Origin: Malacoraja senta
Lineage: Eukaryota
Length of the DNA stretch: 64,000 nt
Assembly: GCA_038087875.1 (NCBI GenBank)
Contig: CM075991.1
Location: forward strand, 5,828,001-5,892,000
Direction: 5' to 3'
Shown: in pieces, positions 11,294-60,786 of the stretch
How positions within the stretch are numbered: position 1 is the first letter of the stretch
Layout of the letters: the number at the start of each line of letters is the position of its first letter
Position numbers and translations under genes: made by a program
The notes under the pieces: model-generated
What the model was told of the DNA's origin: nothing
The model's input: the letters and a program-made list of their open reading frames with translations, nothing else
Database searches by the model: none

Positions 11294-11892
11294 TGAGGAA
11301 CGGAGCCAGCTGAGAGCAGAACCTTCGTGCCAAGGTCTTTAAGTCTGGTAAGCACAGACACACACACAAACTAGATACTCAAACAAAGCAACAATTTTAG
11401 GGTTATTTTAGGTTAAAGGTAATAGCCCTCATTTGCAAAGGCACCATCGGTGGGTCTCTAACATAAATGTAGGCTCATTGTAGCTTAAAATGAATACTCA
11501 TCGAGAAAACATCAGAGCATTCGATTCTTGGTCAGGATTGACATTTATATCAGAAATCAGACAGGTCTCTTACAGGTCTGTCACCCAGCCTGGCACTGCC
11601 CCAGTCCCACTATGGCAGTTAACCCTACACTCCACACTATGGCAGTCAATGGGGTTCAGTAAACGGGGTAACACAGAGGATCTGCCCTGACCCTTAAATT
11701 AGGCAGGTTCATGAGCCCTTAAAACCTGGGACCTCTGCTGCAGTCTCATTAAATTTCCTATTAAAGCGACAGGAAGATGCCTTGCAGGACTGCCCCCCAG
11801 CCTGGAACTGCCCCAGTCCCACCATGGCCGCGACCCCACCTCTGCACAATGGCAGTCAGTGAGGTTCTGTAAAGAGAGGAAACCACAAGAAC
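11294..11892 (-). other. Unclassified, possibly LTR-like segment with ~190-210 bp imperfect internal repeats
   Basis: Truncates the L2 and ends in CA on the minus strand. The motif cagcctgg(c/a)actgccccagtcccac recurs at about 11585 and 11798. Copy 2 (56791-57460) also keeps a second ctgccct..aattagg..ggacctctgc block. Confidence 0.3.
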
Positions 11893-12878
11893 TGTGTTTT
11901 TATTCCTTTCCACTTCAACTGTTCTATTAAAAAGATATGGAATAATTCCCACGTGGGTGTTGAGCACCATTCCGCAATTTCCAACCCCGGAAGGTTCAAC
12001 GTCACCAGAATGTGACGGGAATGGGGAACAGAAGTTACCTTTTCTTCCTTCGGGGGCATCACGTACCCGTGACCATCTACCACCTTAACATCCTCATCAC
12101 AGAGGGTTGGGCTCACGGCAGTTGTGGCTCTGGATAAGGGAGTTGACCATCTATTTAACCACACCATGCCACCTTGATCTCCACATACTACAGTAATGGG
12201 GTCTTCGGAATTACTTTGATTTATAATAAACCGCATTTGTCTCTCTCTCCTTTGATCCCCAGGGAGCCCCAAACACTACAATTCCAGCAATTCCACGCAA
12301 CATTTTTGCCCTTCACATTGCACCGCTTCCTCTTTCAATAATGTAGCTCAATTTGTGCAAGTGACTGTATTTACATCATTAACAACTGTATTCATTCCAT
12401 CAATTTTCAGTTAGGGTTTCTGATGATTCAATGTTGTGCCGTTGGAGCACTCTTGACTCCAGCCTGATGCATGCATTATGTGAAACCCTGTGAAAATAAA
12501 AACAAATCCAGACCCTTGCTAGTTGTGGTAGTTCAATTCTTCCTTTATGGTTTATACTGTTTCTACTGAGTTCAATGTTTCCATTTAGCAGTCCTATTCA
12601 TGTCAACGAGAAAAGATATTTCACCTTACAATTTAACACCATGTTGCCCACCCACCAGGGCTGGAGAGCAGCCCATTCCGGGAGAATTCTAACCATTACC
12701 TGATTTCCGTTCTTCGACCTTTTAGCTTAAATGCTTACTTTTCCTTTTCCTAATATTTGATCCTCTACTGAACAAATAACTCATAATGAAGTTGAAGACA
12801 TTTATTTACTAACTCTAGGATGTACCCAATATTATTCCATTTCCATTGCAGGCATGTGCTCCTATCGTTTTTACATCT
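11893..12878 (-). mobile_element. Degraded retrovirus/LTR-element relic: integrase C-terminus, splice acceptor, env-like N-terminus
   Basis: Hand translation across frameshifts gives GNQVMVR..QPWWVG..FLVDMNRTAKWKH*TQ*KQYKP*, then tttgtttttattttcacag, then Cys-containing ORF 11856-12272 (VVDGHGYVMPP..RHILVTLNLPGLEIAEWC). Confidence 0.5.
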
Positions 12879-12884
12879 TCAGTA

Positions 12885-13595
12885 GGTGGATAACTCACTG
12901 ATATACAGAGAATTGTGAGGTGTTGCATTTTGGGACGTCGAACAAGGGCAGGACATACACAGTAAATGGTAGGACTCTGGATAGTGTTGTAGAACAGAGG
13001 GATCTAGGAGTACGTGCATCGTTCCTTGAAGGTCGAGTCGCGGGTAGATAATTTGGTCAAAAAGGCTTTTGGCACTTTCGCCTTCATCAGTCAGAGTATT
13101 GAATATAGAAGTTGGGAGTTCATGTTGCAGTTGTATAAGACGTTGGTGCGACCGCATCTAGAATAATATGTTCAGTTCTGGGCACTATGTTATAGGGAAG
13201 ATATTGTCAAGCTTGAAAGTGTTCAGAAAAGATTTACGAGGATGTTGCTAGGACTGGAGGGTGTGAGTTATAGGGAGAGGTTGAGTAGTCTATTCCATGC
13301 AGAGGAGGAGGATGAGGGGTGGTCTTATAGAGGTGTACAAAATCATGAGACAAATAGATCGGGTAGATGCACAGAGTCTCTGGCCCAGAATAAAGCTATC
13401 GATTGCCAGAAGACTTAGGTTCAAGGAAATGATTTAATAGTAATCCGAGGGGCAACTTTTTCACACAAAAGGTGGTGAGTGTGTGGAGCAAGCTCGCAGA
13501 AGAGGTAGTTGTGGTTGGGACTATCCCATATTCTAAGAAACAGTTAGACAGGTTAGTACAGATTTGGAGGGATAGGGACCAAGCGCAGGTTAGTC
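12885..13595 (+). mobile_element. Old CR1 LINE 3' RT fragment (copies at ~58807-59508 and inverted ~31350-31784)
   Basis: CEVLHFG, YTVNGRTL, LQLYKTLVRPHLE and VQKRFTRML motifs. Confidence 0.88.
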
Positions 13596-14510: not shown

Positions 14511-14514
14511 GTAT

Positions 14515-14885: not shown

Positions 14886-15094
14886 TGTTGAGTAAATCAC
14901 ACATACTCACAGATCTGGTTTAACAATATTTATTAAGACACGTATACAAAACACTTCAACATGTTACTCCTATCATGCAGAAGTACAGACTGACAGCGCA
15001 TGTCGGGTTGCCATAATATTAATGGCGTGGTAGTAGGTGTGGCTTTAAATAATAAAGCACTACATTAGTTAGTAGGTAAAGTAACAAAACTACA
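14886..15094 (-). repeat. Gypsy 3' LTR (209 bp, TG...CA)
   Basis: On the minus strand it begins TGTAGTTTTG, ends ACTCAACA and contains AATAAA. The PPT aagaaaga is intact in the other two copies. Confidence 0.8.
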
Positions 15095-22845: not shown

Positions 22846-24805
22846 ATGGAATATCCAGCAATTTACTACATAGCCGCCACTTTCTACCCTGTACTTGTGG
22901 CGGTTGGTATTCCTGGTAAGATACTGGGACGAGTAGGTTTAGTTTTGTACAGAAAAACTGCGCGGAAAGAGGCCCTTCGATCAACCGAGTCCGCGCCAAC
23001 CAGCAATCCCCGCACACTGACGGCACACGCTAGGGACAATTTACAATTGTACCGAGCCAATCAGCCTACAAACCTGTGCATCTTTGGAGTGTGAGCGAAT
23101 ACCGGAGATCCCGGAGAAAAACCCAAGAAGATCACGGGGAGAATGTACAAACTCCGTGCAGGATCAAACCCGGGTGGTTGGCGCTGTCAGGCAGCACATT
23201 TAACGCTGCGCACCGTGCCGCCCTGCGTGCAGTTCTCCTTCCATTCTGTATCTGCTGCTCTGAAGAATAGTCGCTTTGATACCCAGCCCAGATGCTGCCT
23301 CAGCTCACGAGTGTCTTCGGAAGGTTCAGGCTTCAGCGTCTGTTTTATTTCTGGCATTTTGTTCTTATTAATGTGTGGTTCTTTTGTCAATCTGGTCAGT
23401 TAATTTAGAGCTAATGTTTACATTTTGCAGCATGTAACCATATTCAGATTGTTTCTGGCGCATATTCTTCAAGCTCTGGGTCTTATTAATACAGACTTTT
23501 CCACCAAGAGTCAGCGAATGAGAAATGTATACATGTCTGTCAACATGCCTGTTGAATTATCACAACTAGCTGAAACACCTTCCGGGTTTTCGTTCTCTGA
23601 TTCATTTGCCAGTTTTGATTTTATGACTGCGTTTCCACTTGCTACGTCTGATATGTCGGAGGAAGCAGTTCTCCCTGAGTCTAATGCTCTCTGATACAAG
23701 TTAATTTCGATTGACGCAACGACTCGAAATGACTGAGGTGATCAGTGCGTCGTAGACTTTAGGAGGCCGACTGTAAATTGCTGCAAATTACCGACACACC
23801 TGCCTCTTCGATCAGCACCGCTCTAAGTATTTCTCCGAACGGAAATTTAGTAAACTGGATCAGGTTTTTGCTCATTGAAACTAACGTTCTATTTTGTTTC
23901 TTGCAGTTAATTTAACGGCGATTGTGATCCTCTCCCGGGGAAAATGTGGTCTCTCCAAATGCATCACCCGTTACCTAGTGGGAATGGCAACAGCGGATCT
24001 AATGGTAGTTGTCATTGTTGCTGCAATTGAACAAGTTAATAACATACACGTTTACGCTCGTTCCTTGCTCATTACACCGGTTTGCGCTCTGGCACTAATA
24101 CTAAATGTAATAACAATCGACTGTTCCGTTTGGTTCACCGTCAGTTTCACTTGCGATCGTTTTATGGCGATCTGTTGTCAAAAGCTACGTGAGCGCTACA
24201 GCACCGAGAGAGCAGCGTGTGTGATTATGGTGACTGTGGCTGTGGTCAGCTGCGCCCGATCGTTTCCCTTTTACTTTGCCGTGGAGCCTGCTGTCATAAT
24301 TGACAATGTGCCTTGGCGTTGCGTCTTCTCAGAGGAGTACGCCACTTTGTCGGTATGGAAAGGTTATGAGTTACTTGACAGCATCTTAGCACCGTTGTTA
24401 CCTATCGGTTTAATCCTGTTGTTCAATGGGTTAACTTGCAGACATATCATAGCGGCCAATAGAGTTCGCAGACGACTTCGGAACAGCCATGAGAACCAGA
24501 AAGATACAGAGGTGGAGAACCGGAGAAAATCGATGATTTTGCTCTTCGCTGTATCAGGCAATTTCATATTATTTTGGATACCCTATGTGGTTCATTCTCT
24601 GACATGGCAAGCACGTAATTTCTTTTACATCGATAGATATTTGAGCAACCCGGTATTTATCCTGCAGCAGTTTGGATATATGTTTCAGGTTCTCAGTATG
24701 TGCACAAACACGTGTATCTATACACTGACACAGAGGAAATTCAGGGAGGAGCTGAAGAGTGGAGTGAAATATCTACTCACATTGAATGGCCGATTATGTA
24801 GTTGA
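22846..24805 (+). CDS. GPR139/GPR142-like class A GPCR, intact, 2 exons: join(22846-22915, 23907-24805), 322 aa
   Basis: Exon 1 MEYPAIYYIAATFYPVLVAVGIP ends G|gtaag. Branch-like ctaac at 23881 and ttgcag| acceptor give an in-phase GTT codon. Seven hydrophobic segments, MATADL, C3.25, DRF, FWIPY, NTCIY, RKFRE. Family assignment is by motif recognition. Confidence 0.9.
22938..23223 (-). mobile_element. tRNA-derived V-SINE (HE1-like) in GPCR intron
   Basis: The minus strand starts gggcggcacggtgcgcagcg (A-box-like), has gggtttgatcctg (B-box-like), a V-domain-like cacactccaaagatg and a CR1-like tail. Confidence 0.8.
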
Positions 24806-25261: not shown

Positions 25262-25355
25262 CTAGACTAATTGTGACGCGTTGGGTCCCATGTTCACACG
25301 GGAGGGCTGGTCCCCCAACGCAATATTCCACCTCTCCACCAATTCCAATATTAAT
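25262..25355 (-). mobile_element. Possible Helitron-like 3' terminus fragment
   Basis: Minus strand gggacccaacgcgtcac (degenerate hairpin), then attagtCTAG followed by T. Confidence 0.3.
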
Positions 25356-25559
25356 TAATGTCTCTGTAACCTTTCATCTTTATCTTTCCCCAAAGCTAAC
25401 TTGAAACGTAAGTTTCTTGCTGTTTAGAAATCTCCCTCCTATATATCTAAAATGTATTTACCATAAATGTCCAGATTGAGTCCGCTCGTAAATTAAGTCG
25501 TATGTTGAACTTTGGGATACTTGCCTGCTAAACACAGTGACCAAGAGCAACTCTAATGC

Positions 25560-28277
25560 AAAATTGCTTAGAGGAAGGAAGGAAAGCTTGACAATGGACA
25601 ACAGAGTAAGGTCAGGGCCAATTGCGAGCGGTGCGAGGGGGGGTGTGAATACGGAGGTCAAAGTACTGTATATGAATGCGCGAACTATATGGAATAAAGT
25701 GGAAGAGATTGAGGCTCAGTTAGAAACTGGCAAGTATGTTTTTGTGGGAATTACTGAGACATGGCTGCAAAAGAGCCAGGGCTGGGAACTGAATATTCAA
25801 TGGTATACCTCCTGTCGAAAAGACAGACAGGTGGGCAGAGGGGGTGGGGTTGACCTGTTGGTGAGGAATTAAATTCAGTCCCTTGCAAGGGGTGACATTG
25901 AAACAGGAGATGTGGAGTCAGTATGGATAGAACTAAGGAATTGTAAGGGTAAAAAGACCCCAATGGGACTAATCTACAGGCCCCCAAACAGTAGCCTGGA
26001 CATAGGGTGTAAGTTGAATCAGGTCTTAAAATTGGCATGCAGCAAAAATAATGCTGTGGCTTTTATGGGAGATTTCAACATGCAGGTAGACTGGGAAAAT
26101 CAGGTTGGTACTGGCCCCCTAGAATGGGACATTGTAGAGTGCCTTCGTGATTGATTCTTCAGGCTTGTATTGGAGCCTACCAAGGAGACGGCAATTCTGG
26201 ATTTAGTGTTATGTAATGAACCGGATTTGATAAAGGACCTCGAGGTTAATGAGCCATTTGGAGGCAGTGACCATAACATGGTCGGGTTTAATCTACAATT
26301 GGAGAAGGCGAACAGTACATCGGAGGTGTCAGTGTTGCAGTTGGATAAAGGGGACTATGGGACCATGAGGGAGGAGCTGGCCAAAGTTGACTGGAAAGAT
26401 ACACTAGCAGGGATGACAGTGGAACAAAAATTGCAGGTGTTTCTAGGAATAATACAGAAGGTGCGGGATCAGTTCATTCCAAGGAGGAAGAATGATTCCA
26501 AGGGGAGAAAGGGACGACCATGGCTGATAACGGACGTCAGGGACAGTATAAAAATTAAAGAGAAGAAGTACAAGGTAGCAAAGATGAGCGGGAAGCAAGA
26601 GGATTGGGTAATGTTTAAAGAACAACAGAAGATAACCAAAAAGGCAATACGGGGAGAAAAGATGAGGTACGAAGGGAAGCTAGCCAAGAATATAAAGCAG
26701 GATAGTAAAAGCTTCTTTAGGTATGTGAAGAGGAAAAAATTAGTTAAGACCAAAGTTGGACCCTTGAATACCGAAAAGGGTGAATTTATTATGGGGAACA
26801 AAGAAATGGCAGATGAGTTGAACAAGTACTTGGGATCTGTCTTCACTAAGGAGGACACAAACAATCTTCCTGATTTAATAGTCGCCAGAGGATCTGGGGT
26901 GACAGTGGAACTGAAGGAAATCCACATTAGGCAGAAAATGGTGTTGGATAGGCTGATGGGACTGAAGGCTGATAAATCCCCAGGGCCTGATAGTCAGCAT
27001 CCCAGGGTACTTAAGGAAGTGGCTCTAGAAATCGTGGATGCATTGGTGATAATTGTCCAATGTTCTATAGACTCGGGATCAGTTCCTGTGGATTGGACGG
27101 TAGCTAATGTTATCCCACTTTTTAAGAAAGGCGGGAGAGAGAAAACGGGTAATTATAGACCACTTAGCCTGACATCGGTGGTGAGGAAGATGCTGGAGTC
27201 AATTATAAAAAATGAGATAGCCGCACATTTGGATAGCAGTAACAGGATCGGTCCGAGTCAGCATGGATTTGCGAATGGGAAATCATGCTTTACTATTCTT
27301 CTGGAATTTTTTGAAGATGTAACGAGGAAAATGGACAATGGAGAGCCAGTGGATGTAGTGTACCTGGACTTTCCGAAAGCATTTGATTAGGTCCCACATA
27401 GGAGATTCAATTATGGCACATGGTATTGTGGGTAGAGTGTTGACATGGGTAGGGAAGTGATTAGCAGACAGGAAACAAAGAGTAGGGATTAACTGGTCCC
27501 TTTCAGAATGGCAGGCAGTGACAAGTGGGGTACCGCAAGGCTCTGTACTGGGACCGAGGCTATTTACAATATACATCAATGATTTGGATGAAGGAATTCA
27601 AAGTAACATTAGCAAATTTGCAGATGACACAAAGCTGGGTGGCAGTGTGAAGGGTGGGGAGGATTCTATGAGAATGCAGGGTGACTTGGGCAGGTTGGGA
27701 GAGTGGGCAGATGCATGGCAGATGAAGTTTAATGCGGATAAATGTGAGGTTATCCACTTTGATAGTAAAAACAGGAAGACAGATTACTATCTAAATGGTG
27801 TCAAGTTGGGAAAAGGGGAAGTACAACGGGATCTGAGGGTCCTTTTATATCAGTCTATGAAAGTAAGCATGCAGTTACAGCAGGCAGTGAAGAAAGCAAA
27901 TGGCATGTTGGCCTTTATAACAGGAGGAATCGAATATAGGAGCAAAGAGGTCCGTCTGCAGTTGTACTGAGCCCTAGTGAGACCACATCTGGAGTATTGT
28001 GTGCAGTTTTGGTCCCCAATTTGAGGAAGTACATTCTTGCTATTGAGGGTGTGCAGCGTAGGATTACAAGATAAATTCCCGGGATGGCGGGACTGTCATA
28101 TGCTGAGAGAATGGAGCAGCTGGGCTTCTGCACTCTGGAGGATGTGCACACTGAGAAGGATGAGAGGGATTCTCATTGAAACATATAAGATTGTTAAGGG
28201 CTTGGACAAACTAGAGGCAGAAACATGTTCCCGATGTTGGGGAAGTCCAGAACCAGGGGCCACAGTTTAAGAATAAG
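25560..28277 (+). mobile_element. CR1 LINE, near-complete degraded ORF2, 3' end lost
   Basis: LYMNART, GITETW, MGDFN, SDHN, SPGPD, YLDFPKAFD, GVPQGSVLGP, KFADDTKL; several stops and frameshifts. Confidence 0.95.
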
Positions 28278-30268
28278 AATGTTTAAGAATTATTTTCCTC
28301 TGCATTGGTCCACGCTTGCTTCTGACATATTCGAGTAGCGTGGCAAACAGTATCTGGTTTTTGTTGACTCGTATTCGGGCTGGTTCGAAATCGACCTGCT
28401 CCAAAGCCCAACATCCGCTGCAGTAATCCAAAAGCTGGCGCGCCATTTCGCCATACACGGTGCCCCCGCACGCCACTTGTCAGATAACGGCAGTCAGTCA
28501 ACTAGCCAGTGTTTTAGAAATTTTGCTCAACGACGGGATTTTCGCCATGTCACCAGCAGTCCAGAATTCCCACAATCAAGCGTACTTGCAGAACGGGCTG
28601 TCCGGAGCGCCAAGCAATTGATGGAGCGCTCACACTTTGCTAAATCCGATGTTTCACCTGCGAAACCTGCGAAACATCGCCTGTGACCCAATACTCGGGT
28701 CTCCTGCCCAACGCCTGATGTCCCGACATCCCGTGCTATACTTCCTGTGCCCCAACATCTACTGCAGCCACAGGTTCGTTCACCAATTGCCATCAGAAAC
28801 AACTCGAACTGAAACGCGATACCCAAACACGATTTTTTGACCACTTAAACCTCTATCCAGTGGCCAAGTCACTCGCCTTCAAACCAACAAGGATTGGGCC
28901 GTTTGGGCTTCATCCACAATTCCGAAAAAGAGTCGCGCTCATGCCTGGTGAGTGCAGAGGGGGGATCTACAGGTGCAACCGTCAACATCTCCTTCCTGTC
29001 AAGGAACCACGTCCTGCTGTCTCGTATCCGGATGCGACACGTTCGATCTACACATCTACTGACCGACTTTCTCCTCTCTCACGACGTGCAGCTGCAGACC
29101 AACCATTGATTGTGACTCCAGCTCCCTCACCACCACGCTCGGTGCTCCGCCTGCCTGCCTCGCCGTGTTTGTCCCCCGGGTCCCCAGTGCTCCCGCCGCA
29201 CGGTGAAGGGAGGAGATGCGGATCTGTACCGATGCGCGCGGGATGGGTTTGTAGGCCGCCCCTTAGATATGGGGACTTTGTTTGTATCAATAGTACGTAT
29301 GCGCTATTACCGTTTCGGTTACATTATTAATCAGTCAGCACCTAGTAACGTGCTTCTACATATATATCACTTTTTTGTAGATGTGTTTCACTTTATATTC
29401 TTACAAGAAAGATGTAGTTTTGTTACTTTACCTACTAACTAATGTAGTGCTTTATTATTTAAAGCCACACCTACTACCACGCCATTAATATTATGGCAAC
29501 CCGACATGCGCTGTCAGTCAGTACTTCTGCATGATAGGAGTAACATGCTGAAGTGTTTTGTATACGTTTCTTAATAAATATTGTTAAACCAGATCTGTGA
29601 GTATGTGTGATTTACTCAACAAGCTTTTTGCCTGTTCCGCATCTCCTCCCGCTTACCTCAATGTTTTTCCGACTTGTTCCCGGAGCCGCGCTCCCATCGT
29701 TGTTGCCGCGGATCGCTCTCATGATCTCTGCCGGCCATGCTGGATCGGTGAATAAAGTGTCTACAAACAAATGGGTTATGCTAAAGTATAAGTTTAAAAG
29801 TGTTTTACGGTCGACGAGTGTTAGTGCTGATGTGCTAGTCTGAAAGATATTAAAAATATAACTGATAGTTTAAAAAACTCACAATCTCCACGGAGCTGCC
29901 ATGACTGCAACTGGAGCAGGCCGCGCCATCTTGAGAGGGCGTTCCTTCAGGAGCTGACTGTGACTGGACCCGTCGCGCCATCTCTTATACTTCTTTTACT
30001 TCGCGCATTCATATATAATACTTTTAAACCATTACTCGCCTCACCTTTCACATCGATTCTTATTTCACTTGGTCATACCTATCCCTTCGTGAGCTTTCTG
30101 CCCCGTTAATTCTGGTGTCTTTCTAAACTTTTCCTATCCTTTCTATCCCTTTAACTCGATCCTTATATTTCCAATATGGCTGCCCCCCCCCCCCACACAC
30201 ACACACACACACACACCTCCCCCCACTATTTAGTTTACACCCACGTGTAGCAGTGGCAAACCGTCCTG

Positions 30269-30506: not shown

Positions 30507-31784
30507 GTCCTGCCAGTATGCTGGTCCACCGCCTGTTAAGGTACAACAAGTGCGTTCTGTACAACTCACCCTTACCTCAAAACAGATACCTGTGGTCTAA
30601 GATTCTACATCCCTGCCTCCTGCATCAGCTCCTCAGCCACACATTCAGATCCCCTATCTCCCTGTTCCCGCCCTCACGAGCACAGGGAACTGGAAGCAAA
30701 CCAGACATAACCACCCTGGAGGTCCTGTTTTCAGCCTTCTTCCGCGCTTTCTGAAGTCACGCTGCAGAATCTCTTTCCTCATTTCCCGCCGTCATTTGTG
30801 CCGACATGCACTACCACTTCCGGCTGCTCACTTTCCGCCATGAGGATGCTCTGTAATCGGTCCATGGCGACCTGGATCTTGGCACCAAGGAGGCAACACA
30901 CCTTCCTTGAATCCCGCCTGTTATCGCAGAAACCCCTGTCTGTACCTTTCGCGATCGTTCCCGATTACTACGGCTCTGCCTGACGTCTGTCACTTCGGCT
31001 TTGCTTCAGCGCTACGATTTGACTCGCAGGCCTATCCCCCACTCAGAATGGCTGTCTCTTCTGTCCCGACAGCTTCCAAGAGGGTGAACCTGTTTTTCAA
31101 GAGGTACATCCCCCGGGGTCTCCTATACTCTCCACCTTCCTTCCCTTCGTCATCGTCACCCACCTTCTCTCTTCAGGTACCTTCGGTGTAACGATCTCGC
31201 TGTATGTCCTGTCCAGCAAACCCTAGAGCAAGCCTTGCTTATATTGGCTGATAAATTGACCGATTAGCTAACTTACCATTTTTTGGTAATTACATTCCTC
31301 AGCCAATACCCTCACTCACTCTTTCACCTGCCGCTCCTCTGCCGACCTTGACTAACCTGCGCTTGGTCCCTATCCCTCCAAACCTGTATTAACCTTGCAC
31401 CTGTCTAACTGTTTCTTAAAGTATGGGATAATCCCAGCCTCAACCACCTCTTCTGGCAGCTTGTACCACACACTCACTATCCTTTATGTGAAAAGGTTAC
31501 CCCTCGGATTCCGATTCAATCATTTCCTTAAACCTAAGTCTTCTGGCAATCGATAGATCTATTCTGGGCCAGAGACTCTGTGCACCTACCCGATCTATTT
31601 CTCTCATGATTTTGTACACCTCTATAAGACCACCCGTCATCCTCCTGCTCTGCATGGAATAGACTACTCAACCTCTCCCTAAAGCTCACACCCTCCATTC
31701 CTAGTAACATCCTCATAAATCTTTTCTGAATATGACAATATCTTTCCTATAACATAGTGCCCAGAAATGGACACAATATTCTAG

Positions 31785-32815
31785 CTGCTCAGGTATAGGG
31801 TGGCATTCAAATGTTCGCTACCCACCATGTCCCCAATTTGATATCGAATCAACAACAGGAAAAAATGAGTCAAGATATGCAATATGACTGTCACGTAAGA
31901 TCGTTGTCTATAGCGAGCAAAATGGATCGGATATACCAAGATGCTCAGGGAACATATATTTTTGGGGTCGTTCTCCATGTCCCACGCCAGCTGAAGAATA
32001 AGACGTTTATCCTATACCAGTTGCATATTATTGGGCAGTATAAACAAGGAGCTTCGATAACAATGCACTATGCTCTTGAAAATAATGTGATAATTGATAA
32101 AGTATCAAGGGGCATCATAATGTACCGATGTCATCAAACAAGGAATAATGAGTAGGATGGAGTTTGGTTCATCATTTACTCATTATAATAACGGTAAGCT
32201 TTCGATTGATGTAAAACCTAATGCTTCTTTTGCCAGTGTTGCCCATCAATGGGAAAATATGAGGTCGCTGCCTCTGCTAAGTGGCATTGAACGAGTGGTC
32301 GGAAATGTACTCTACGTTGGCATAATATTGTAAACCGGAGTCTTACGAGACAGATCACTATACGAGACAAGAAATTAATGGTACCGTGGGTGGGAAAATC
32401 GATAACAGTAAGCTTCATTGTCGTACGGAATGACTCGGACGAGACATTAAGAAGATTTATCGCAAACATACTTCAACCAATACCACACCTCCATGCTGAT
32501 TGGAAGTTACTGACTAAGGAGGGTGAAATGGTTATACATGACTGGGATGAGAGCACTAAGCCTATTCGGATGCATGGCAGAGAAGCAGAGGACATATTGG
32601 AGAAAATGGACTTGGTGGGAAAGAGCCTGGAACTGGGGACTGAATACTAACGTGCATCCTTTGATTAGTTGTTGTACATAATCATTCATAGCGATTACTT
32701 TGTTCTTATTTTTGGTTTCACAGGATAAGTTGAAAACCCTGATGTTAGTTAGGCAGGTGGGAAGAGGGGATAACAGACAACAATTAGTTTCAGTAGGTGT
32801 ATTAGTGGGTGCTGT
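31785..32815 (+). pseudogene. Degraded viral envelope/fusion-glycoprotein-like C-terminal half
   Basis: ORF 31811-32155 (DCHVRSL..IFGVVLHVP..FILYQLHIIG), amphipathic segment 32378-32610, then after a frameshift TWWERAWNWGLNTNVHPLI..SFIAITLFLFLV (Trp-rich stretch plus TM-like segment). Confidence 0.55.
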
Positions 32816-32821
32816 TTAATA

Positions 32822-35800
32822 TGGATTATACTTCGCAGTCACGTGAGTGACTACGTGAAGAACCCGCCAGCCCGCAGGCGCGTATTACGTCTAACGCATG
32901 GCGCAGCGACTAAGTTTAAAGACCTCCAGGTAAGTTCTCGAACTTAGCTTGCGGTTGTTTATCTTCGTTCTTATTACAGGTTAAGAACGAACAACTATGG
33001 ACAAGGCGGGGGTGAAGTCCAGACGGGCCGCGAGGAAAACTGCTACGGAAGACCGCGGCAGTGCGATTAGCGGGCGGTCGTCGGTTTCACCATCACGGTC
33101 ACTGACAGCACACACCCAGCAACCGCGCCTCGCTAAGAGTTCTGGCCGTAAATAGCTCCATTTGTAGTTACATGGGTGGAGGCATAAAGATTCAGGAGGT
33201 TAAACTCCAAAGGATCCTGAGCCTTCTGGCATCCGGGGTCAAGGCCTTCGCCAGGTCAATGGACGGGAGCTCCCTGTCTGAGGTTCAACCGGACGCATTG
33301 GCACTGATGTGCAATGCACATTTTCAGATAAATTGCTTTTGCAAGAATGCCATTCGTCCTGTCCTCAATCCCAAGTTTGCTGGTTTATGCAGGTCGAGCA
33401 ATGTGCAGCCGGCCAATTATTTATTTGGGGAAGACCTGTCCAAACAAGTCAAGGACCTGTAATCTACCAGCAACAGATGGTCTACAGGAGCCAGTACCAG
33501 CTCAAGGACCGAAAGAACCAGCCAAAGGTCTTTTATAGGACAAGGTTCAGGCCGGCCGACATCGAAGATGCGCAGTTGGCGCACTCCAGTACCCTTACCC
33601 CTCAAACATCGAGGGCGGATATAAACATCGCAGATCCATCAATATCCATGGAGGTAGGTGGGTCTGGTTCTCTATGGAACATGCGGTGTGTGGGTCAATC
33701 ACATGTTGGTGGGAGATTACGTTTCTTTTTGAATGAATGGCGTTCGATAACATCGGATATGTTCATACTGCACAGTATAGATGATTTCCAAATTGAATTT
33801 TCTGATTCACTTCCACCCACACAGCATACTCCAAACCGTACTTTGGTCCTTCACAACAAGACGGTTTGGATGTACAAATTGAAATTCAATCATTATATCC
33901 AAAAGTGTAATTGAGAAGTCGAATCATGAATCTCACCAATTTGTGTCCAATATATTTACAAAACAAAAGAAAGATGGGGGATGCCGAGTCATCCTGGACT
34001 TGACCCGACTCAGCACCTTTGTGCAGTACAGACATTATAAAATGGAAAATGTTGTTACTGCCAAACAATTGATTTCCAAAGGATGTTATATGGCATGCAT
34101 CGATCTTAAAGATGCATACTATTCGGTGCCTATTCATAAGGATCACCGGAAATACTTAAAATTCAACTGGATGGGGCAGCTTCGGCAGTTTAAAGCATTG
34201 CCTAATAGGTTAACTTCAGCTCCCAGATTATTCACGAAATTATTAAAACCAGTTCTTGCTTTTTTAAGAGCTCAAAAACACATAGTAATGGCGTACTTGG
34301 ACGATATCCTTATTATAGGCAAGACTCTGGAATTGTTTTTTTCAGCGGTCTGAGCCACCAAGCTCTTATTTGAGCGATTGGGATTTCTCATCCATCCAGT
34401 TAAATCCAAGTTGACACCATCCAAAGTTATGGAATACTTGGGATTCACTATTAACTCTGTTCATATGTCTGCAACTCTGCCTTGAAGCAAGATATTGGAG
34501 TTAATAGAGTGCTGTAATTACATCTTTACGAAGCAGCAGCCTTCCATCCGACAAGTGGCCAGTTTAATTGGAAAATTAAATAATTGTATAAGGGGTAAGA
34601 GTGTTGTAAAAACAAGCCTGAAGGCTTTGTGTCTCAATGCAAGGAGTATTTGTAATAAGGTGGATGATTTGAATGTGCTGATAGATATTAATGACTATGA
34701 TATAGTTGGGATCACGGAGACATGGCTCCGGGGTAACCAAGGCTGGGAGCTGAACATCCAGGGATATTCAATATTCAGGAGGGATAGACGGATAGGAAAA
34801 GGAGGTGGGGTAGCATTGATGGTTAGAGAGCAGATTTACGCAATAGAAAGGAAGAACATTAGCTTGGAGGATGTGGAATCGATATGGGTAGAGCTGCGAA
34901 ACACTAAGGGGCAGAAAATGCTAGTGGGAGTTGTGTACAGGCCACCTAACGGTAGTAGTGGAGTTGGGGATGGCATCAAACAGGAAATTAGAAATGCGTG
35001 CAACAAAGGTAAAACAGTTATAACGGGTGACTTAAATCTACATATAGATTGGGTGAATCAAATTGGCAAGGGTGATGAGAAAGAGGATTTCTTGGAATGT
35101 ATGCGGGATAGTTTTCTAATCCAACATGTAGTGGAACCAACGAGAGAGCAGGCTATTCTAGATTGGGTATTGAGTAATGAGGAAGGGTTAGTTAGCAGTC
35201 TTGTTGTGCGTGGCCCCTTGGGCAAGAGTGACCACAATATGGTTGAGTTCTTCATTAGGATGGAGAGTGATATTGTTAATACAGAAACAAGGGTCCTGAA
35301 CTTAAAGAAAGGTAACTCTGAGTGTATGAGAAGTGAATTGGCCAAGATAGACTGGCAATTGATTCTTAATGGGTTGACGGTAGATATGCAATGAAAGGCA
35401 TTTAAAGACTGTATGGATGACCTAAACAATTGTTCATCCCAGTTTGGCAAAAAAATAAATCAGGGAAGGTAGTGCATCCATGGATAACAAGGGAAATCAG
35501 GGATAGTTTCAAAACAAAAGATGAAGCGTACAAATTAGCCAGAAAAAGCAGCCTTCCTGAGGACGGGGAGAAATTCAGAGTCCAGCAGAGGAGGAGAAAT
35601 GGCTTAGTTAGGAAAGGGAAAATAGGTTATGAAAGAAAACTGGCAGGGAACATAAAAACTGACTGCAAAAGCTTTTATAGATATGTGAAGAGAAAAAGAT
35701 TAGTTATAACAAATGTAGGTCCCTTGCAGTTAGAAACGGGTGAATTGATCATGGGGAACAGGGACATGGCAGACCAATTGAATAACTACTTTGGTTCTGT

Positions 35801-38250
35801 CTTCACTAAGGAAGACATAAATAATCTGCCGGAAATAGCAGGTGACCGGTGGTCAAATGAGATGGAGGAACTGAGTGAAATCCAGGTTAGCCGAGAAGTG
35901 GTGTTAGGGAAATTGAATGGATTAAAGGCCGATAAATCCCCAGGGCCGGATAGGCTGCATCCCAGAGTACTTAAGGAAGTAGCCCCAGAAATAGTGGATG
36001 CATTAGTGATATTTTTTCAAAACTCTTTAGATTCTGGAGTAGTTCCTGAGGATTGGAGGGTAGTTAATGTAACCCCACTTTTTTTAAAGGGAGAGAGAAA
36101 ACGGGGAATTACAGACAAGTTAGTCTAACGTCGGTAGTGGGGAAACTGCTAGAATCAGTTATTAAAGATTGGGTAGCAGCACATTTGGAAAGTGGTGAAA
36201 TCATTGGACAAAGTCAGCATGGATATATGAAAGGTAAATCATGTCTGACGAATCTTATAGAATTTTTCGAGGATGTAACTAGTAGAAAGGATAAGGGAGA
36301 ACCAGTGGATGTGATATATCTGGACTTTCAGAAGGCTTTCCACAAGGTCCCACATAAGAGATTAGTATACAAAGTTAAAGCACACGGTATTGGGGGTTCA
36401 GTATTGATGTGGGTAGAGACTTGGCTGGCAGACAGGAAGCAAAGAGTAGGAGTAAACGGGTCCTTTTCACAATGGCAGGCAGTGACTAGTAGGGTACCGC
36501 AAGGCTCCGTGCTGGGACGCCAGCTATTTACGATATATATTAATGATTTGGACGAGGGAATTGAATGCAACATCTCCAAGTTTGCGTATGACACGAAGCT
36601 GGGGGGCAGTGTTAGCTGTGAGGAGGATGCTCGGAGGCTGCAAGGTGACTTGGATAGGCTGGGTGAGTGGGCAAATGCATGGCAGATGCAGTATAATGTG
36701 GATAAATGTGAGGTTATCCACTTTGGTGGCAAAAACTGGAAAGTAGACTATTATCTGAATGGTGGCCGATTAGGAAACGGGGAGATGCAACGAGACCTAG
36801 GTGTCATGGTACACAAGTCATTAAAAGTAGGCATGCAGGTGCAGCAGGCAGTGAAGAAGGCGAATGGTATGTTAGCATTCATAGCAAAAGGATTTGAGTA
36901 TAGGAGCAGGGAGGTTCTACTGCAGTTGCACAGGGTCTTGTTGATACCACATCTGGAATATTGCGTACAGTTTTGGTCTCCTAATCTGAGGAAAGATATT
37001 CTTGACATAGAGAGAGTACAGAGAAGGTTCACCAGACTGATTCCTGGGATGTCAGGACTTTCATATGAAGAAAGACTGGATAGACTCGGTTTGTACTCGC
37101 TAGAATTTAGAAGATTAAGGGGCGATCTTATAGAAACGTACAACATTTTTAAGGGGTTGGACAGGCTAGATGCAGGAAGATTGTTCCCGATGTTGGGGAA
37201 GTCCAGAACAAGGGGTCACAGTTTAAGGATAAGGGGGAAATCTTTTAGGACCGAGATGAGGAAAACATTTTTCACACAGAGAGTGGTGAATCTCTGGAAT
37301 TCTCTGCCACAGAAGATAGTTGAGGCCAGTTCATTCGCTATATTTAAGAGGGAGTACGGTGTGGCCCTTGTGGCTAAAGGGACCAGGGGGTATGGAGAGA
37401 AAGCAGGTACAGGATACTGAGTTGGATGATCAGCCATGATCATATCGAATGGCGGTGCAGGCTCGAAGGGCCGAATGGCCTACTCCTGCACATATTTTCT
37501 ATGTTTCTATGTTTCTAAATTAGTGGCTGCTTTCCCAGCTGTACAATTTGGACCTTTGTATTATCAACAATTACAATGAGCAATGGTGCAGGCACTCAAA
37601 CATCATTTAGGTCACTTTGACAGGCCCATGCAATTGACGGCTGAAGCCATTTCTGAATTACAGTGGTAGAAGTCCAATATTCAGCATTGCTCTAGCAATA
37701 TTTCGGTTGATAGTCGACCAGTTATTTTACAAACGGATGCCAGTGCTCTGGGATGGGGCGCTACTGACACCATCTCTAGCTGCGGTGGCAGATGGAACAT
37801 GCATGAGCTATCATTATTTCAGTTACATGGTGTTAATTATTTGGAGTTACTGGCAGCTCTCTGTGGATTGAGGGCTTATTGCGGGTATATGCACATCTGC
37901 ATGTTCGATTACAGATTGATAACACCACAGCGGTGGCATACATAAATCACATGGGTGGAATCAAGTCAGTATCCTGTGATAAATTGGCTAACCGCATTTG
38001 GCACTGGTGCATTGCAAGATATATTTGGGTTTCAGCTACCCACCTGCCAGGTAGGTTTAATACGGTGGCGGACAGTAGGTCATGCAAATTCAATGACAAC
38101 ACCGAATGGATGTTGAATCATAGAGTGTTTAAGGATATTATTTCTAAGTATGGAACACAGGATATAACTTTGTTTGCATCCAGGCTAAATCATCCGTTAC
38201 TGAAGTATGTTGCATGGGAACCAGACCCAGGGGCTGTAGCGGTAGATGCA
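32822..38250 (+). mobile_element. DIRS-type retrotransposon (gag-RT-RNase H-MT start), split by CR1, 3'-truncated
   Basis: gag-like LFGEDLSK; VGGRLRFFLNEW, KKDGGCRVILDL, IDLKDAYYSVPI, TSAPRLFTK, AYLDDIL; TDASALGWG, DNTTAVAYINHMGG, LFASRLN. The tyrosine recombinase ORF is absent. Confidence 0.92.
34579..37516 (+). mobile_element. CR1 LINE with nearly complete ORF2 inserted in DIRS RT
   Basis: 6-bp TSD aaatta at 34573-34578 and 37517-37522; removing it restores ..LIGKLVAAFP. EN and RT motifs, 3' UTR and (TTTCTATG)n tail present. Confidence 0.96.
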
Positions 38251-39053
38251 ATCCAAACCACATTTGTCTCATCTGCAAACTTTCTAATCTTGCCATGTAC
38301 ATTCTCATACTGTAATGTATATACATGCGAAACAGAAATGGGCCAAGCATAGCACTCTGAGGCACACCACGGGCCTCCAGTCCGAGAAACAACCTTCCAC
38401 TATTACCCTCTGTTTCCTTCCATGAAGCCAATTGTCTATACATCCGGTTATTTTTCCTTGAATCCCATGCGATCTAACCTTCCAAAGCAGCTTATCATGT
38501 GGAACTTTGTCAAATGTTTTGCTGAAGTCCAAATACACTGTATACAACATCTGCAGCTCTGCCCTCGTCAACATTTTTGGTCGCATCTTAAAATATGAAT
38601 ATTTCCTATCCTGTGTAACCTATCCCTCAGAATGCTCTCTAGTAACTTTGCAACTGCAGATGTTAAGTTCACTGGCATGTAGTTCCCAGAATTTTCCATC
38701 TTTCCTTTCTTGAGAGCTAAACTCCCCACGTGATTTCTTTTAACAGCCGCTCCGTATTCCTCACAAGTGATTCCAATATCTGCTTGGATGTGTTGATATC
38801 ATTGGAAGTCAGGAATTGCATCCATTGGTTAATTAGCATCGTCAGTGACTGTTGATCCTACGAATAATAACTTCCGAGTGGCAAGATGGTGGCGTGAATC
38901 ATTCCTTTCAAGGAAGACGTATGTCTAACGTTACTTCCCAAACTAAGATCCTTATTGTTAAAGAAGGAACTGCAGATGCTGGAAAATCGAAGGTACACAA
39001 AAATGCTGGAGAAACTCAGCGGGTGCAGCAGCATCTATGGAGCGAAGGAAATA

Positions 39054-39088
39054 GGTAACGTTTCGGGCCGAAACCCTTCTTCAGACTG
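39054..39088 (-). ncRNA. Minimal hammerhead-ribozyme-like motif (mirror copy)
   Basis: Reverse complement of the motif at 39477-39512. Confidence 0.6.
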
Positions 39089-39476
39089 ATAGGGGGTGGG
39101 GAGAAGAAAGGAAAAAAGGAAAAGGAGGAGGAGGAGCCCGAGGGCTGGGGGGGGGGAGGAGACAACCAGATGGCTGATGAAGGGGAGGGGACAGCCAGGG
39201 CTAGCAGAATTGGGAGAATTCAACGTTCAGGCCAACAGGATGTAGACTGCCCAAGCGGAATATGAGGTGCATTTCCTCCAATTTACGGTGTTGCTCGCTG
39301 TGGCCATGGAGGAGAAAGTCTACATCCTGTTGGCCTGAACGTTGAATTCTCCCAATTCTGCTAGCCCTGGCTGTCCCCTCCCCTTCATCAGCCATCTGGT
39401 TGTCTCCTCCCCTCCCCCAGCCCTCGGGCTCCTCCTCCTCCTTTTCCTTTTTTCCTTTCTTCTCCCCACCCCCTAT

Positions 39477-39512
39477 CAGTCTGAAGAAGGGTTTCGGCCC
39501 GAAACGTTACCT
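39477..39512 (+). ncRNA. Minimal hammerhead-ribozyme-like motif
   Basis: CUGAAGA-A-GGG(uuucgg)CCC-GAAA-CGUU: both core boxes, stem II and a palindromic AACGUU stem III. Stem I is weak. Confidence 0.6.
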
Positions 39513-39991
39513 ATTTCCTTCGCTCCATAGATGCTGCTGCACCCGCTGAGTTTCTCCAGCATTTTTGTGTACCTAAGATCCTTATTGCTTGATTTGACTA
39601 AATCACACTGTGCAACTAATGTTATTAATGTTACATATTTGAAGTTCATTGTTCAGGTTAGAAATAATATTGTTCGCAGGAATAATTACATTTAAGAAAC
39701 CTTTAACCTTGAGTCACAGAAATAGAGTTTTCAACATTCCCTTTTATAAAATGTGACAAAAACATTAAAATTAACAGTTCGTGTAATCCCTCGAAGACAG
39801 AAATTCCTTGCGCAATGAAAAAAAACAGTTACGGTTGATGTTTGTTAAGTGGGCTGAGGGTGATGTGCCAGAGGTCACGCTAATTGTCTCAGAGTAATGT
39901 CCTCTTTTGTATAAATCTGTGCTAAATCAATCACCACTACAGATGGACAGTTGGAAAGTTATGTGTGATTGTTCGCTGCTTCACATGGAAG

Positions 39992-41951
39992 ATGGAATAT
40001 CCAGCAATTTACTGCATAGCCGCCACTTTCTACCCTGTACTTGTGGCGGTCAGTATTCCTGGTAAGATACTGGGACCAGTACGTTTAGTTTTGTACAGAA
40101 AAACTGCGCGGAAAGAGGCCCTTCGATCAACCGAGTCCGCGCCAACCAGCAATCCCCGCACACTGACGGCACACGCTACGGACAATTTTCAATTGTACCA
40201 ACCCAATCAGCATACAAACCTGTGCATCTTTGGAGTGTGGGCGGATACCGGAGATCCCGGAGAAAACCCAATAAGATCGCGGGGAGAATGTACAAACTCC
40301 GTGCAGGATCAAACCCGGGTGGTTGGCGCTGTCAGGCAGCACATTTAATGCTGCGCACCGTGCCGTACTGCGTGCAGTTCTCCTTCCTTTCTGTATCTGC
40401 TACTCTGAAGAATAGTCGCTTTGATACCCAGCCCACATGCTACCTCAGCTGACGAGTGTCTTCGGAAGGTTCAGGCTTCAGAGTCTGTTTTATTTCTGGC
40501 ATTTTTTTCTTGTTAATGTGTGGTTCTTTTGTCAATCAGGTCAGTTAATTTAGAGCTTATGTTTACATTTTTTCAGCATGTAACCGTATTCATATTGTTT
40601 CTGGTGCATATTCTTCAAGCTCTGGGTCTGATTAATACAGACTTTTCCACCAAGAGTCAGCGAATGAGACATGTATACATGTCTGTCAACATGCCTGTTG
40701 AATTATCACAACTAGCTGAAAAACCTTCCGGGTTTTCGTTCTCTGATTCATTTGCCAGTTTTGATTTTAGGGCTGTGTTTCCACTTGCTAGGTCTGATAT
40801 GCCTGAGGAGGCAGTTCTTTCTGAGTTTAATGCTCTCTGATACGAGTTCATTTCGATTGACGCAACGACTCGAAATGACTGAGGTGATCAGTGCATCGTA
40901 GACATTAGGAGGCCGGCTGTAAATTGCTGCAAATTACCGACACATCTGCCTCTTCGATCAGCACCGCGCTAAGTATTTCTCCGAACGGAAATTTAGTAAA
41001 CTGGATCAGGTTTTTGCTCATTGAAACTAACGTTTTATTTTGTTTCTTGCAGTTAATTTAACGGCGATTGTGATCCTCTCCCGGGGAAAATATGGTCTCT
41101 CCAAATGCATCACCCGTTACCAAGTGGGAATGGCAACAGCGGATCTAATGGTAGTTGTCATTGTTGCTGCCATTGAACAAGTTAATAACATATACGTTTA
41201 CGCTAGTTCCTTGCTCATTACACCGGTTTGCGCTCTGACACTAATACTAAGGGTTGTAACAATCGATTGTTCCATTTGGTTCGCCGTCAGTTTCACTTGC
41301 GATCGTTTTATGGCGATCTGTTGTCAAAAGCTACGTGAGCGCTACAGCACCGAGAGAGCAGCCTGTGTGATTATGGTGACTGTGGCTGTCGTCAGCTGCG
41401 CCCGATCGTTTCCCTTTTACTTTGCCGTGGAGCCTTCTGTCATAATTGACAATGTGCCTTGGCGTTGCGTCTTCTCAGAGGAGTACGCCACTTTGTCGGT
41501 ATGGAAAGGTTATGATTTACTTGACAGCATCTTAGCACCGTTGTTACTTATCGGTTTAAACCTGTTGTTCAATGGGTTAACTTCCAGACATATCATAGCG
41601 GCCAATAGAGTTCGCAGACGACTTCGGAACAGCCATGAGAACCAGAAGGATACAGAGGTGGAGAACCGGAGGAAATCGATGATTTTGCTCTTCGCTGTAT
41701 CAGGCAATTTCATATTATTTTCGATACCCAATGTGGTTCATTCTCTGACATGGTAAACACGTAATTTCTTTTACACGGATAGATATTTGAGCAGCTCGGT
41801 ATATATCCTGCAGCAGTTTGGATTTATGTTGCAGATTGGCAGTATGTGCACAAACACGTGTATCTATAAACTGACACAGAGGAAATTCAGGGACCAGCTG
41901 AAGAGTGGAGTGAAATATCTACTCACATTGAATGGCCAATTATGTAGTTGA
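39992..41951 (+). pseudogene. GPR139/GPR142-like GPCR pseudogene: join(39992-40061, 41053-41951)
   Basis: Same exon sizes (70 and 899 nt) and splice sites as the intact copy. CAA>TAA at 41754-41756 removes ECL3/TM7; also FWIPY>FSIPN and L>Q near TM2. Confidence 0.9.
40084..40365 (-). mobile_element. V-SINE (HE1-like) in intron of GPCR pseudogene
   Basis: Same position and sequence as 22938-23223, so the insertion predates the gene duplication. Confidence 0.8.
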
Positions 41952-47380: not shown

Positions 47381-47524
47381 TGTAAACAAATAAATTGGGG
47401 AAATAAATGATTATATAAAGTTTTATTTTAATGTCGATGGTTTCACTGTTTATTTGGTCAAATTATTTAAACAATTAGTGAATTACTTGTGATCATGACG
47501 TGCTGGTGAATGACAGTGCGACAG

Positions 47525-47700
47525 TCCACCCACCCATCCATACATGCATACATACACACATCCACACACATATCCATCCGTACGTACACTTCCGTACATG
47601 CACACACACATACATTCATACATACATCCACACATCCATCCACACATCCATCCATCCACATATACATACACACTTAAATCCACACATCCACAGATACACC
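47525..47700. repeat. CA/CATC-rich low-complexity microsatellite (copy 2)
   Basis: Same tract as 3455-3745 with internal deletions. Confidence 0.9.
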
Positions 47701-57599: not shown

Positions 57600-58800
57600 G
57601 TGTAATATGGGCATTGGCTACTAGATGGCGCTTACTTTGCCGATCATATTTTCTATTTAGTTTAATTAATTAATGTGCAACATTTGGCACTGACGAGTTA
57701 TGACATCCTTCTCAATTATATTTCATCTAAATCTGTGGAAAATTCCATGTAGTTCCGTGAGGTGGGTCACGAAAATCGATTTCTAGACACATTTTTGATG
57801 CTCGGCCCACAGCCTATATGTGTTTTTATTCCTTTCCACTTCAACTGTTCTATTAAAAAGATATGGAATAATTCCCACGTGGGTGTTGAGCACCATTCCG
57901 CAATTTCCAACCCCGGAAGGTTCAACGTCACCAGAATGTGACGGGAATGGGGAACAGAAGTTACCTTTTCTTCCTTCGGGGGCATCACGTACCCGTGACC
58001 ATCTACCACCTTAACATCCTCATCATAGAGGGTTGGGCGTACGGCAGTTGTGGCTCTGGATAAGGGAGTTGACCATCTATTTAACCACACCATGCCACCT
58101 TGATCTCCACATACTACAGTAATGGGGTCTTTGGAATTACTTCGATGTATAATAAACCGCATTTGACTCTCTCTCCTTTGATCCCCAGGGAGCCCCAAAC
58201 ACTACAATTCCAAAAATTCCACGCAACATTTTTGCCATTCGCAACGCACCGCTTGCTCTGTCAATAATGTAGCTCAATTTGTGCAAGTGACTGTATTTAC
58301 ATCATTAACAACCGTACTCATTCCATCAATTTTCAGTTAGGGTTTCTGATGATTAAATGTTGTGCCGTTGACTCTTAACTCCAGCCTGATGCATGCATTA
58401 TTTGAATCCCTGTGGAAATAAAAACAAATCCAGCCCCTTGCCAGTTGTGTTAGTTCAATTCTTCCTTTATGGTTTATACTGTTTCTACTGAATTCAATGT
58501 TTCCGTTTAGCAGTCCTTTTCATGTCCATGAGAAAACATATTTCAACTTCCAATTTTACACCATGTAGCCCACCCACCAGGGCTGGAGACCAGCCCATTC
58601 CGGGAGAATTCTAACCATTACCTGATTTCCGTTCTTCCACATTTTAGCTTAAATTCTTACTTTTCCTTTTCCTAATATTTGATCCTCTAATGAACAAATA
58701 ACTCATAATTAAGTTGAAGACATTTATTTACTAACTCTTGTATGTACCCAATATTTTTCCATTTCCATTGCAGGCATGTGCTCCTATTGTTTTTACATCT
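57600..58800 (-). mobile_element. Retrovirus-like relic, copy 2 (extends further 3' than copy 1)
   Basis: Paralogue of 11893-12878. ORF 57767-58198 continues past the copy 1 deletion point. Confidence 0.5.
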
Positions 58801-60786
58801 TCAGTAGGTGGATAACTCACTGATATACAGAGAATTGTGAGCTGTTGCATTTTGGGACGTCGAACAAGGGAAGGACATACACAGTAAATGGTAGGACTCC
58901 GGATAGTGTTGTAGAACAGAGGGATCTAGGAGTACGTGCATCGTTCCTTGAAGGTCGAGTCGCAGGTAGATAATGTGGTCAAATAGGCTTTTGGCACTTT
59001 GGCCTTCATCAGTCAGAGTATTGAATATAGAAGTTGGGAGTTCATGTTGCAGTTGTATAAGACGTTGGTGCGACCGCATCTAGAATATTATGTTCAGTTC
59101 TGGGCACTATGTTATAGGAAAGATATTGTCAAGCTTGAAAATGTTCAGAAAAGATTTACGAGGATGTTGCTAGGACTGGAGGGTGTGAGTTATAGGGAGA
59201 GGTTGAGTAGTCTATTCCATGCAGAGGAGGAGGATGAGGGGTGGTCTTGTAGAGGTGTACAAAATCATGAGAGAAATAGATCGGGTAGATGCAGAGAGTC
59301 TCTGGCCCAGAATAAAGCTATCGATTGCCAGAAGACTTAGGTTCAAGGAAATGATTTAATAGGAATCCGAGGGGCAACTTTTCCACACAAAGAGTGGTGA
59401 GTGTGTGGAACAAGCTGCCAGAAGAGGTAGTTGAAGTTGGGACTATCCCATATTTTAAGAAACAGTTAGACAGGTTTGGAGGGATAGGGACCAAGCGCAG
59501 GTTAGTCAAGTCGGCAGAGGAGCGGCAGGTGAAGGAGTGAGTGAGGGTATTGGCTGAGGAATGTAATTACCAAAAAACGGTAAGTTAGCGAATTGGTCAA
59601 TTTATCAGCTAATATAAGCAAGGCTTGCTGTAGGGTAGCGGCCTGTCGGGGAGCGGCTTTCAATAGCGAATAACCTTGTGAGAAAAGTGGGAGTCGTTTG
59701 ATCGTGAGTCTTGTGAGAAAAGTACGAGTCTTTGGCTCGAGAGTCTTCATCGAGGAGGCTGAGTCGCAGAGAAGAAATGTCAGGTACGCTGATTCAGTGC
59801 GATGCTTGCACGATGTAGGAGGATAGGGACACTGCTGGTACTTCTGGCTGTTACAAGTGTGGAAATGTTCTGGTTCAGCTCCTGAAGGACCGTGTTGGGG
59901 CACTGGAGAGGCAACTGGATGACCTCAGGATCATCCAGGAAAACGAGAGTTTGCTGGACAGGATATACAGCGAGATCGTTACACCGAAAGTACCAGAAGA
60001 GAGAAGGTGGGTGACGACGAGGAAGGAAAGGAAGCTGGAGAGTATAGGAAACCCCGGGGGATGTACCTCTTGAAAACAGGTTCACCCTCTTGGAAGCTGT
60101 CGGGACAAAAGACACTGCCATTCTGAGTGGGGAACAGGTCTGCGAGTCAAAACGTAGCGCTGAAGCAAAGCCGAAGTGACAGACGTCAGGCAGAGTAGTC
60201 GGGGACGATCGCGAGAGGTGCCAAGAGAGCCAAATTGGAAATATAACAGTGGAATTAAGGAGAAAGATAGGAAAAGTTAAGAAAGTCACCAGAATTAACG
60301 GGGCAGGGGCCACACAAAGGGATAGGAGAGTATGACCACGTGAAATAGGAATCGATGTGACAGGTGAGGTGAGTAATGGATTAAAAGTAATATATATGAA
60401 TGCGCGAAGTAAAATAAGTATAATGGATGGCGAGGCCGGTTCCAGTCGCCGTCAGCTCCTGAAGAAGCGCCCTCTCAAGATGGCGCGGCCTGGTCCTGTT
60501 GCCGTCGTGGCAGTTCCGCGATGATTGTGCGTTTTTTAAACTATTACTTTTATTTTTAATATCTTTCAGACTAACACATCAGCACTAACACTCTCCGATC
60601 GTAAAACACTTTAAAACTTTTAAAGCATAACCAATTTTTTTGTAGACACTTTATTCACCGATCCAGCATGGCCGGCAGAGATCATTTGAGCGATCCGCGG
60701 CAACAAAGATGGGAGCACGGCTCCGGGAACAAGTCGGAAAAAAACATTGAGGTAAGCGGGAGGAGATGCGGAACAGGGAAAAAGCT

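Follow-up and report, generated by a model that had tools for sequence, protein, structure and literature searches.

The locus raises the question of which kind of virus left a broken, envelope-like coding region in the genome of Malacoraja senta. The region lies in a window (by which we mean the whole 64,000-nucleotide stretch of DNA that was analysed) in which a first-pass annotation, made from the sequence alone, had proposed the TM half of a divergent endogenous retrovirus or env-bearing LTR element. The reading that we prefer, with a probability of about 0.75, is that the region is the broken 3′ part of an env gene from an extinct elasmobranch retrovirus family, and that the envelope, judged from models of its homologues, would be an F-type class I fusion protein and not a gamma-type one.

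The env relic and its neighbours

The region at 31789..32828 (+) matches residues 401–713 of P0013, an intact 745-aa stingray protein, with E 2e-27 (tblastn). All four peptides quoted in the first-pass annotation are present: DCHVRSL at 31886, YIFGVVLHVP at 31955, FILYQLHIIGQY at 32006 (in one frame) and WWERAWNWGLNTNVHPLI at 32613. The last is in a frame other than that of FILYQLHIIGQY, and there are in-frame stops at ~32150–32290 with frame changes there and near 32600, in agreement with the frameshifted reading given at the time. When scored with a profile made exclusively of envs that do not belong to the family of the window copy (hereafter the old family), three ordered pieces of the relic reached 55, 51 and 20 bits, compared to a best of −0.2 bits among 30 shuffles, and by this measure of sequence similarity the homology is far above chance.

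The description as a TM half was correct in that the relic is part of the fusion subunit of a non-gamma env, and too generous in extent. About 70% of the fusion subunit is present, corresponding to the part downstream of heptad A; the first heptad itself is missing, and so are the fusion peptide and the cleavage site. Open stretches reach 119 aa at most, and a stop breaks the anchor. The edges of the relic are common to the dispersed copies of the family. The window copy is a dead fragment and has no coding function now. No CX5–7CC motif occurs in the three plus-strand frames of the piece, as had been noticed for CX6CC, and on the minus strand the motif occurs once, interrupted by a stop. A gamma-type Env is an unlikely identity, with CX6CC, ISD and TLV_coat absent from both the window piece and its intact homologues. 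The relic, its neighbours and other remnants of the old family in the window are:

11891..12375, minus strand: inverted copy, 5′ part of env (76% DNA match to the copy on C3279; P0013 aa 211–288, 42%, E 3e-12)
12463..12900, minus strand: inverted copy, 3′ end of integrase (77% DNA match to the C3279 integrase region)
25346..25566, minus strand: LTR fragment of the old family (78% match to positions 218–457 of the C18 LTR)
31220..31788, minus strand: 3′ piece of a CR1-like LINE, bounding the env relic on its left; repeats at 13154–13723 and 59076–59636
31789..32828, plus strand: 3′ part of the old-family env, with beta-rich domains, C-terminal heptad, Trp-rich membrane-proximal stretch and broken anchor
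32825..38249, plus strand: DIRS-type retrotransposon, inserted between the env end and the 3′ LTR
57864..58822, minus strand: second tandem-unit copy, integrase end and 5′ env (matches to the C3279 copy and P0013)

Similarity to the other env copies ends at 32824–32828, at the start of the DIRS-type element, which contains an RVT_1 match at 33883–34350 (Pfam) and is split by a LINE at 34580–37517 (LINE endonuclease and RT). Four other organisms cover the CR1-like piece at very high depth. We take these elements to be of the CR1 and DIRS types from ORF2 C-terminal motifs and RT/RNase H motifs, respectively, together with Pfam RT matches. The integrase end at 12463..12900 lies directly upstream of the inverted copy's env; the corresponding region of the C3279 copy matches Pfam rve with E 3.8e-8.

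The remainder of the window is rich in other repeats. A Gypsy-type LTR element is located at 28293–30181 (rve at 28339–28683), with inverted copies at 14316–16207 and 60228–62109. At 38986–39579, two 263-bp arms that are 99% complementary and separated by 68 bp form a near-perfect hairpin made of a common repeat. The segments 1–9000 and 42200–54000 are AT-rich (~30% GC) and consist of stacked LINE-like repeats with endonuclease-type motifs.

Intact homologues and the predicted fold

A search with the env piece of a sister copy retrieved catshark proteins (best E 4.7e-13), and led onward to P0007 (513 aa), P0013 (XP_059838750, Hypanus sabinus) and P0014 (XP_072911529, Hemitrygon akajei). The protein relatives thus come from catshark and stingrays, which bears out the cartilaginous-fish origin suggested at the outset. 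P0013 and P0014 are both 745 aa and share 96% identity, and a full-length env ORF is intact in two stingray genera. The stingray set (P0013, P0014, P0015) includes a second Hypanus copy of 319 aa at 95% identity, and the stingray ORF could therefore also represent a young family. There is no close orthologue of P0013 in the M. senta genome, where the nearest sequence is a broken copy on C4 at 36.3 Mb.

P0013 starts with a signal peptide and a surface part (the surface subunit is ~295 aa), followed by RRRR, a hydrophobic, fusion-peptide-like stretch and a long heptad; then come ~250 residues of a cysteine-bearing beta region, a second heptad, a Trp-rich stretch and the anchor. This F-type layout (signal peptide to anchor, RXXR, two heptads) is read from the sequences, and from the secondary structure in models, of P0013, P0007 and the env of a young ERV family in the M. 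senta genome (loci L076–L079 and L081–L084; models of P0013 and the young-family env). In the young family, whose LTR pairs are at 96.7% and 99.2%, gag is followed by a stop, a pol of 1400 aa and an unbroken 798-aa env that is homologous to P0013 at 25% identity (E 3e-42). Most of the 60 scored P0013 matches in this genome appear to belong to this family (8 loci checked). The young-family env and the window piece do not match when compared directly (0.4 bits); the link between the two runs via P0013, at the E-value given above, and a copy on C11 (E 3e-9). A 14-row env tree had three clades, each supported at 100/99 or better: the old family, the catshark set and the stingray set. The broken C4 copy grouped with the stingray set (100/99), and the young family was placed far off.

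The intact homologues and the young-family env have no CX6CC, Pfam searches with them gave no TLV_coat, PF00523 or foamy Env family, and a PDB sequence search with the intact homologues gave no match. AlphaFold models were made of the homologues (P0013 and the young-family env), not of the window piece, and were poor, with a mean pLDDT of 39.2 and 33.9, respectively. In a Foldseek search of the PDB with the young-family model, ranks 1–12 consisted of five RSV F, two hPIV3 F, two hMPV F, two foamy Env and one SARS-CoV-2 spike structure, with a best E of 8.2e-4, TM-scores ≤0.17 and a model pLDDT of 34. In BFVD, WDSV Env was rank 1 for the P0013 model (E 1.3e-4) and rank 2 for the young-family model (E 9.7e-6), where a fish filovirus glycoprotein came first; lower ranks included WEHV-1 Env and mumps F, among some unrelated rows. 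In the Atlas, the P0013 model was nearest to the Baculo_F and Fusion_gly clusters, below the naming bar, and a feature search with fragment P0001 gave class III glycoproteins (0.89, below the bar). The comparison with F proteins and foamy-type envs brought up in the first-pass annotation is recovered in the fold searches of the homologue models, which reach both paramyxo/pneumovirus F and foamy Env, and these models suggest that the env is likely a class I fusogen of the F type, with the fold of RSV/parainfluenza F and foamy Env.

The low confidence of the models, the generic coiled coils that were all that VIA-align returned and a weak GP41 match on the C-terminal heptad and anchor (E 0.016–0.21) would also suit a strongly diverged gamma-type or an unrelated fusogen, in which the F-type matches arise from shared coiled coils. 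We find this improbable, because a gamma-type env from the M. senta genome, used as a control and carrying both CX6CC and TLV_coat, scored −5.4 bits on the window piece, because the Foldseek alignments to RSV F are ~550 columns long, and because the two heptads are separated by ~250 beta-rich residues. Gamma-type TM is not known to have a beta-rich region of that size between its heptads.

The old family: copies, structure and pol

A search of the M. senta genome (1.94 Gb) gave 42 env matches when the best 40 of 78 candidates were scored. These comprise 18 full-length copies at 99–100%, 11 at 90–93%, 4 partial copies at 92%, and 9 rows from 7 dispersed loci at 72–81% identity, save for one 41-bp piece. 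The near-identical copies sit in tandem units 43.9–51.7 kb apart and have their flanks and a GPCR exon in common, and are therefore segmental duplicates rather than new insertions. An older inverted duplication (~91% identity) inside the tandem unit accounts for the two orientations of the env family in the window. The env is covered at ≥80% identity by contigs of at least four other organisms, and so the family is not private to M. senta. The GPCR exon, of the Rhodopsin family, is located at 23885–24805 and 39926–40348 of the window (7tm_1 E 6e-23), inside the 44–52 kb unit; the GPCR cluster has been recently amplified, with at least 7 units on C15.

The dispersed copies carry env for ~970 bp further upstream, preceded by integrase (rve E 3.8e-8), RNase H (profile E 1.5e-6) and tether. 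Their layout is LTR, tRNA-Ser primer site, tether, RNase H, integrase, env, polypurine tract and LTR. This is the retroviral order of LTR, PBS, pol domains, env, PPT and LTR, and both a tether and a second RNase H are present. The env-bearing LTR element that had been proposed is thus found in the dispersed copies, where env is linked to LTRs and pol remnants, and by this domain order the env relic is assigned to a Retroviridae-like endogenous retrovirus family of elasmobranchs, now extinct. The copy on C18 retains both LTRs (~700 bp each) along with its primer site and polypurine tract; no target-site duplication could be recognised. Its LTR pair differs by K2P 0.051 over 690 sites, equivalent to ~12 My at a mammalian rate or ~116 My at the rate taken for sharks in Han 2015 (PMC4422223). 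The primer site in five old-family copies is complementary to the 3′ end of the host tRNA-Ser, identified as such from three of four pattern loci that were called tRNA-Ser.

Profiles of RT, protease and tether were built from intact pols of the same genome. RT and protease were found in none of 11 old-family 5′ regions, compared to RT in both of two controls, and the tether profile matched 7 of the 11; the gag profile was weak even on the control, and the result bears on RT and protease only, not on gag loss. None of the 36 tether matches lies in a frame longer than 188 aa. Several copies align to one another without a break from leader through to tether. The distance between primer site and tether is 0.9 kb in one copy, where an intact class I provirus has 3.5 kb between the gag start and the tether. 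Since RT is absent in all 11 scanned copies, the family likely spread with a helper; no RT-bearing helper was found among the best-scored candidates of the genome searches. The arrangement of the copies suggests that the old family was amplified in trans from an internally deleted, RT-less master. In P0005, a predicted protein of Scyliorhinus torazame, the start of RNase H is joined to an env piece of the same class, which may be a sign of internally deleted members in catshark, too.

Pol was compared with seven intact references, all from the M. senta genome, a set without loki sequences, in which three class I references carry MLVIN_C or adjoin a CX6CC env. Several further ERV families of class I in the same genome (L085–L090, L094 and L095) have an open pol, in some cases along with a gamma-type env and CX6CC, and served as controls. 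By hand count, the RT of the young family matches SnRV at ~69 of 134 positions (~51% identity), WDSV at ~51 and Loki-Xla at ~49, SnRV being compared through the RT and RNase H rows printed in the supplement of Wang and Han (PMC7947760). This snakehead-like (class III-like) young family was last of the seven references for 5/5 tether pieces and 5/5 RNase H pieces, with class I references best for all of both, and the tether tree split the old family and class I references from the young family and a Gypsy row (90/93). For the integrase core, the young family was best in six of seven pieces, by small margins, and accounted for most of the top genome matches; the tree was a polytomy, and the integrase C-terminal domain was uninformative for class.

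The integrase core, together with the homology between the old- and young-family envs, is what would be expected if the old family were itself a divergent snakehead-retrovirus-like (class III) lineage with an F-type env, its class I look consisting of retained ancestral states. SnRV RNase H also shares DGSR and SAQVAELVAL-type motifs with old-family copies (by eye, from the rows in the PMC7947760 supplement), and an SnRV-related lineage is recorded for the elephant shark by Han 2015 (PMC4422223). The last place of the young family for all tether and RNase H pieces, and the split in the tether tree, argue the other way, and we consider such an origin somewhat unlikely. From the sequence comparisons, two readings suit the old family: a class I-like lineage that has an F-type env, as may be true of WDSV, and a snakehead-like lineage that is divergent or recombinant.

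An F-like env with RXXR, fusion peptide, coiled coil and anchor is given as a lokiretrovirus hallmark in PMC7947760, and the parallel with loki and foamy viruses that the first-pass annotation drew does hold in the env fold searches. It breaks down in pol, where the tether and RNase H of the old family resemble class I pols. Furthermore, PF00523 is not matched by P0007, P0013, P0014 or the young-family env; the only RT-bearing relative of the env is nearer SnRV than Loki-Xla in the hand count above (~69 vs. 49 of 134); and Wang and Han (PMC7947760) report none from 6 chondrichthyan assemblies. A lokiretrovirus, which would be the first in cartilaginous fish, is very unlikely and largely refuted by the class I-like tether and RNase H and the missing PF00523; by these comparisons, neither the old nor the young family is loki-like. 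Spumaretrovirinae were rejected, too: there was no foamy Env Pfam match, and the P0013 signal is short and hydrophobic, not a long leader.

Proposed history and comparison with known systems

In the history that we propose, the ancestral env protein would have been cleaved by furin and assembled into trimers, and would have fused membranes through a hairpin refolding of the two heptads around a beta-rich head. The copies in the M. senta genome may stem from the internally deleted, RT-less master, which a helper belonging to the same class I-like lineage would have copied in trans. LINE and DIRS insertions later interrupted the window copy, which multiplied as a passive passenger of the 44–52 kb tandem unit carrying GPCR genes.

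Retroviral envelopes with an F fold have already been published for foamy viruses and lokiretroviruses; the additions here are an RT-less family of class I-like type and a stingray ORF that has been conserved. The locus would connect an F-type env with a class I-like elasmobranch pol, and it suggests that WDSV Env is a protein of the same kind; this combination bears on whether retroviral entry proteins had the F fold ancestrally. A broader proposal, which is speculative and, taken as a whole, unlikely, is that an elasmobranch class I (epsilon-like) lineage had an F-type env in common with snakehead-like ERVs and WDSV and spread without RT while retaining env; that the F fold is widespread and probably the ancestral retroviral Env, with the gamma type a later replacement; and that viviparous stingrays have captured an F-type env gene, the 745-aa ORF (intact, 96% between Hypanus and Hemitrygon), which escapes gamma-type surveys. 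The literature searched contained no description of an F-type env class in elasmobranchs. The surveys of chondrichthyan env genes by Chen et al. (10.1101/2021.11.23.469661) and Proudley et al. (10.64898/2026.05.06.723177) select for ISD/CX6CC, and would therefore not report an F-type class that has neither, a blind spot that includes the intact ORF in two stingray genera. The gamma-type chondrichthyan Envs described there come from the same hosts, often with epsilon-like pol.

Lokiretroviruses and the old family are alike in their F-like env layout and dual RNase H, but the old family has no PF00523 match and a class I-like tether and RNase H, whereas the loki tether is described in PMC7947760 as nearer Ty3 RNase H and the RNase H as grouping with foamy viruses. 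Foamy virus Env shares the F fold, according to Fernandez et al. 2024 (PMC11468914), and the foamy Env structures 8rm1 and 8rm0 were ranks 7 and 11 in the PDB search with the young-family model. P0013 differs from foamy Env by its cleavable N-terminal signal peptide and short surface subunit, and the old family differs by the missing foamy Env Pfam match and a pol that is not foamy-like where tested. The elephant shark is reported to have both SnRV-like and epsilon-like ERVs by Han 2015 (PMC4422223). Snakehead retrovirus and CmiERV lineage I, as treated there, are fish and chondrichthyan retroviruses towards which the old-family integrase core leans, while the tether and RNase H of the snakehead-like young family are unlike those of the old family. 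WDSV and WEHV-1 differ from the old family in its tRNA-Ser primer and lack of RT, and their Env models are larger than the homologues (1159–1317 aa vs. 745–798 aa), with ~11–12% identity. In common with the old family, they combine a class I-type pol with an Env that has no orthoretroviral cysteine loop, epsilonretrovirus Env being set aside as structurally distinct and uncharacterised by Henzy and Johnson 2013 (PMC3758190), and the WDSV and WEHV-1 Env models are among the top Foldseek matches of the homologue models.
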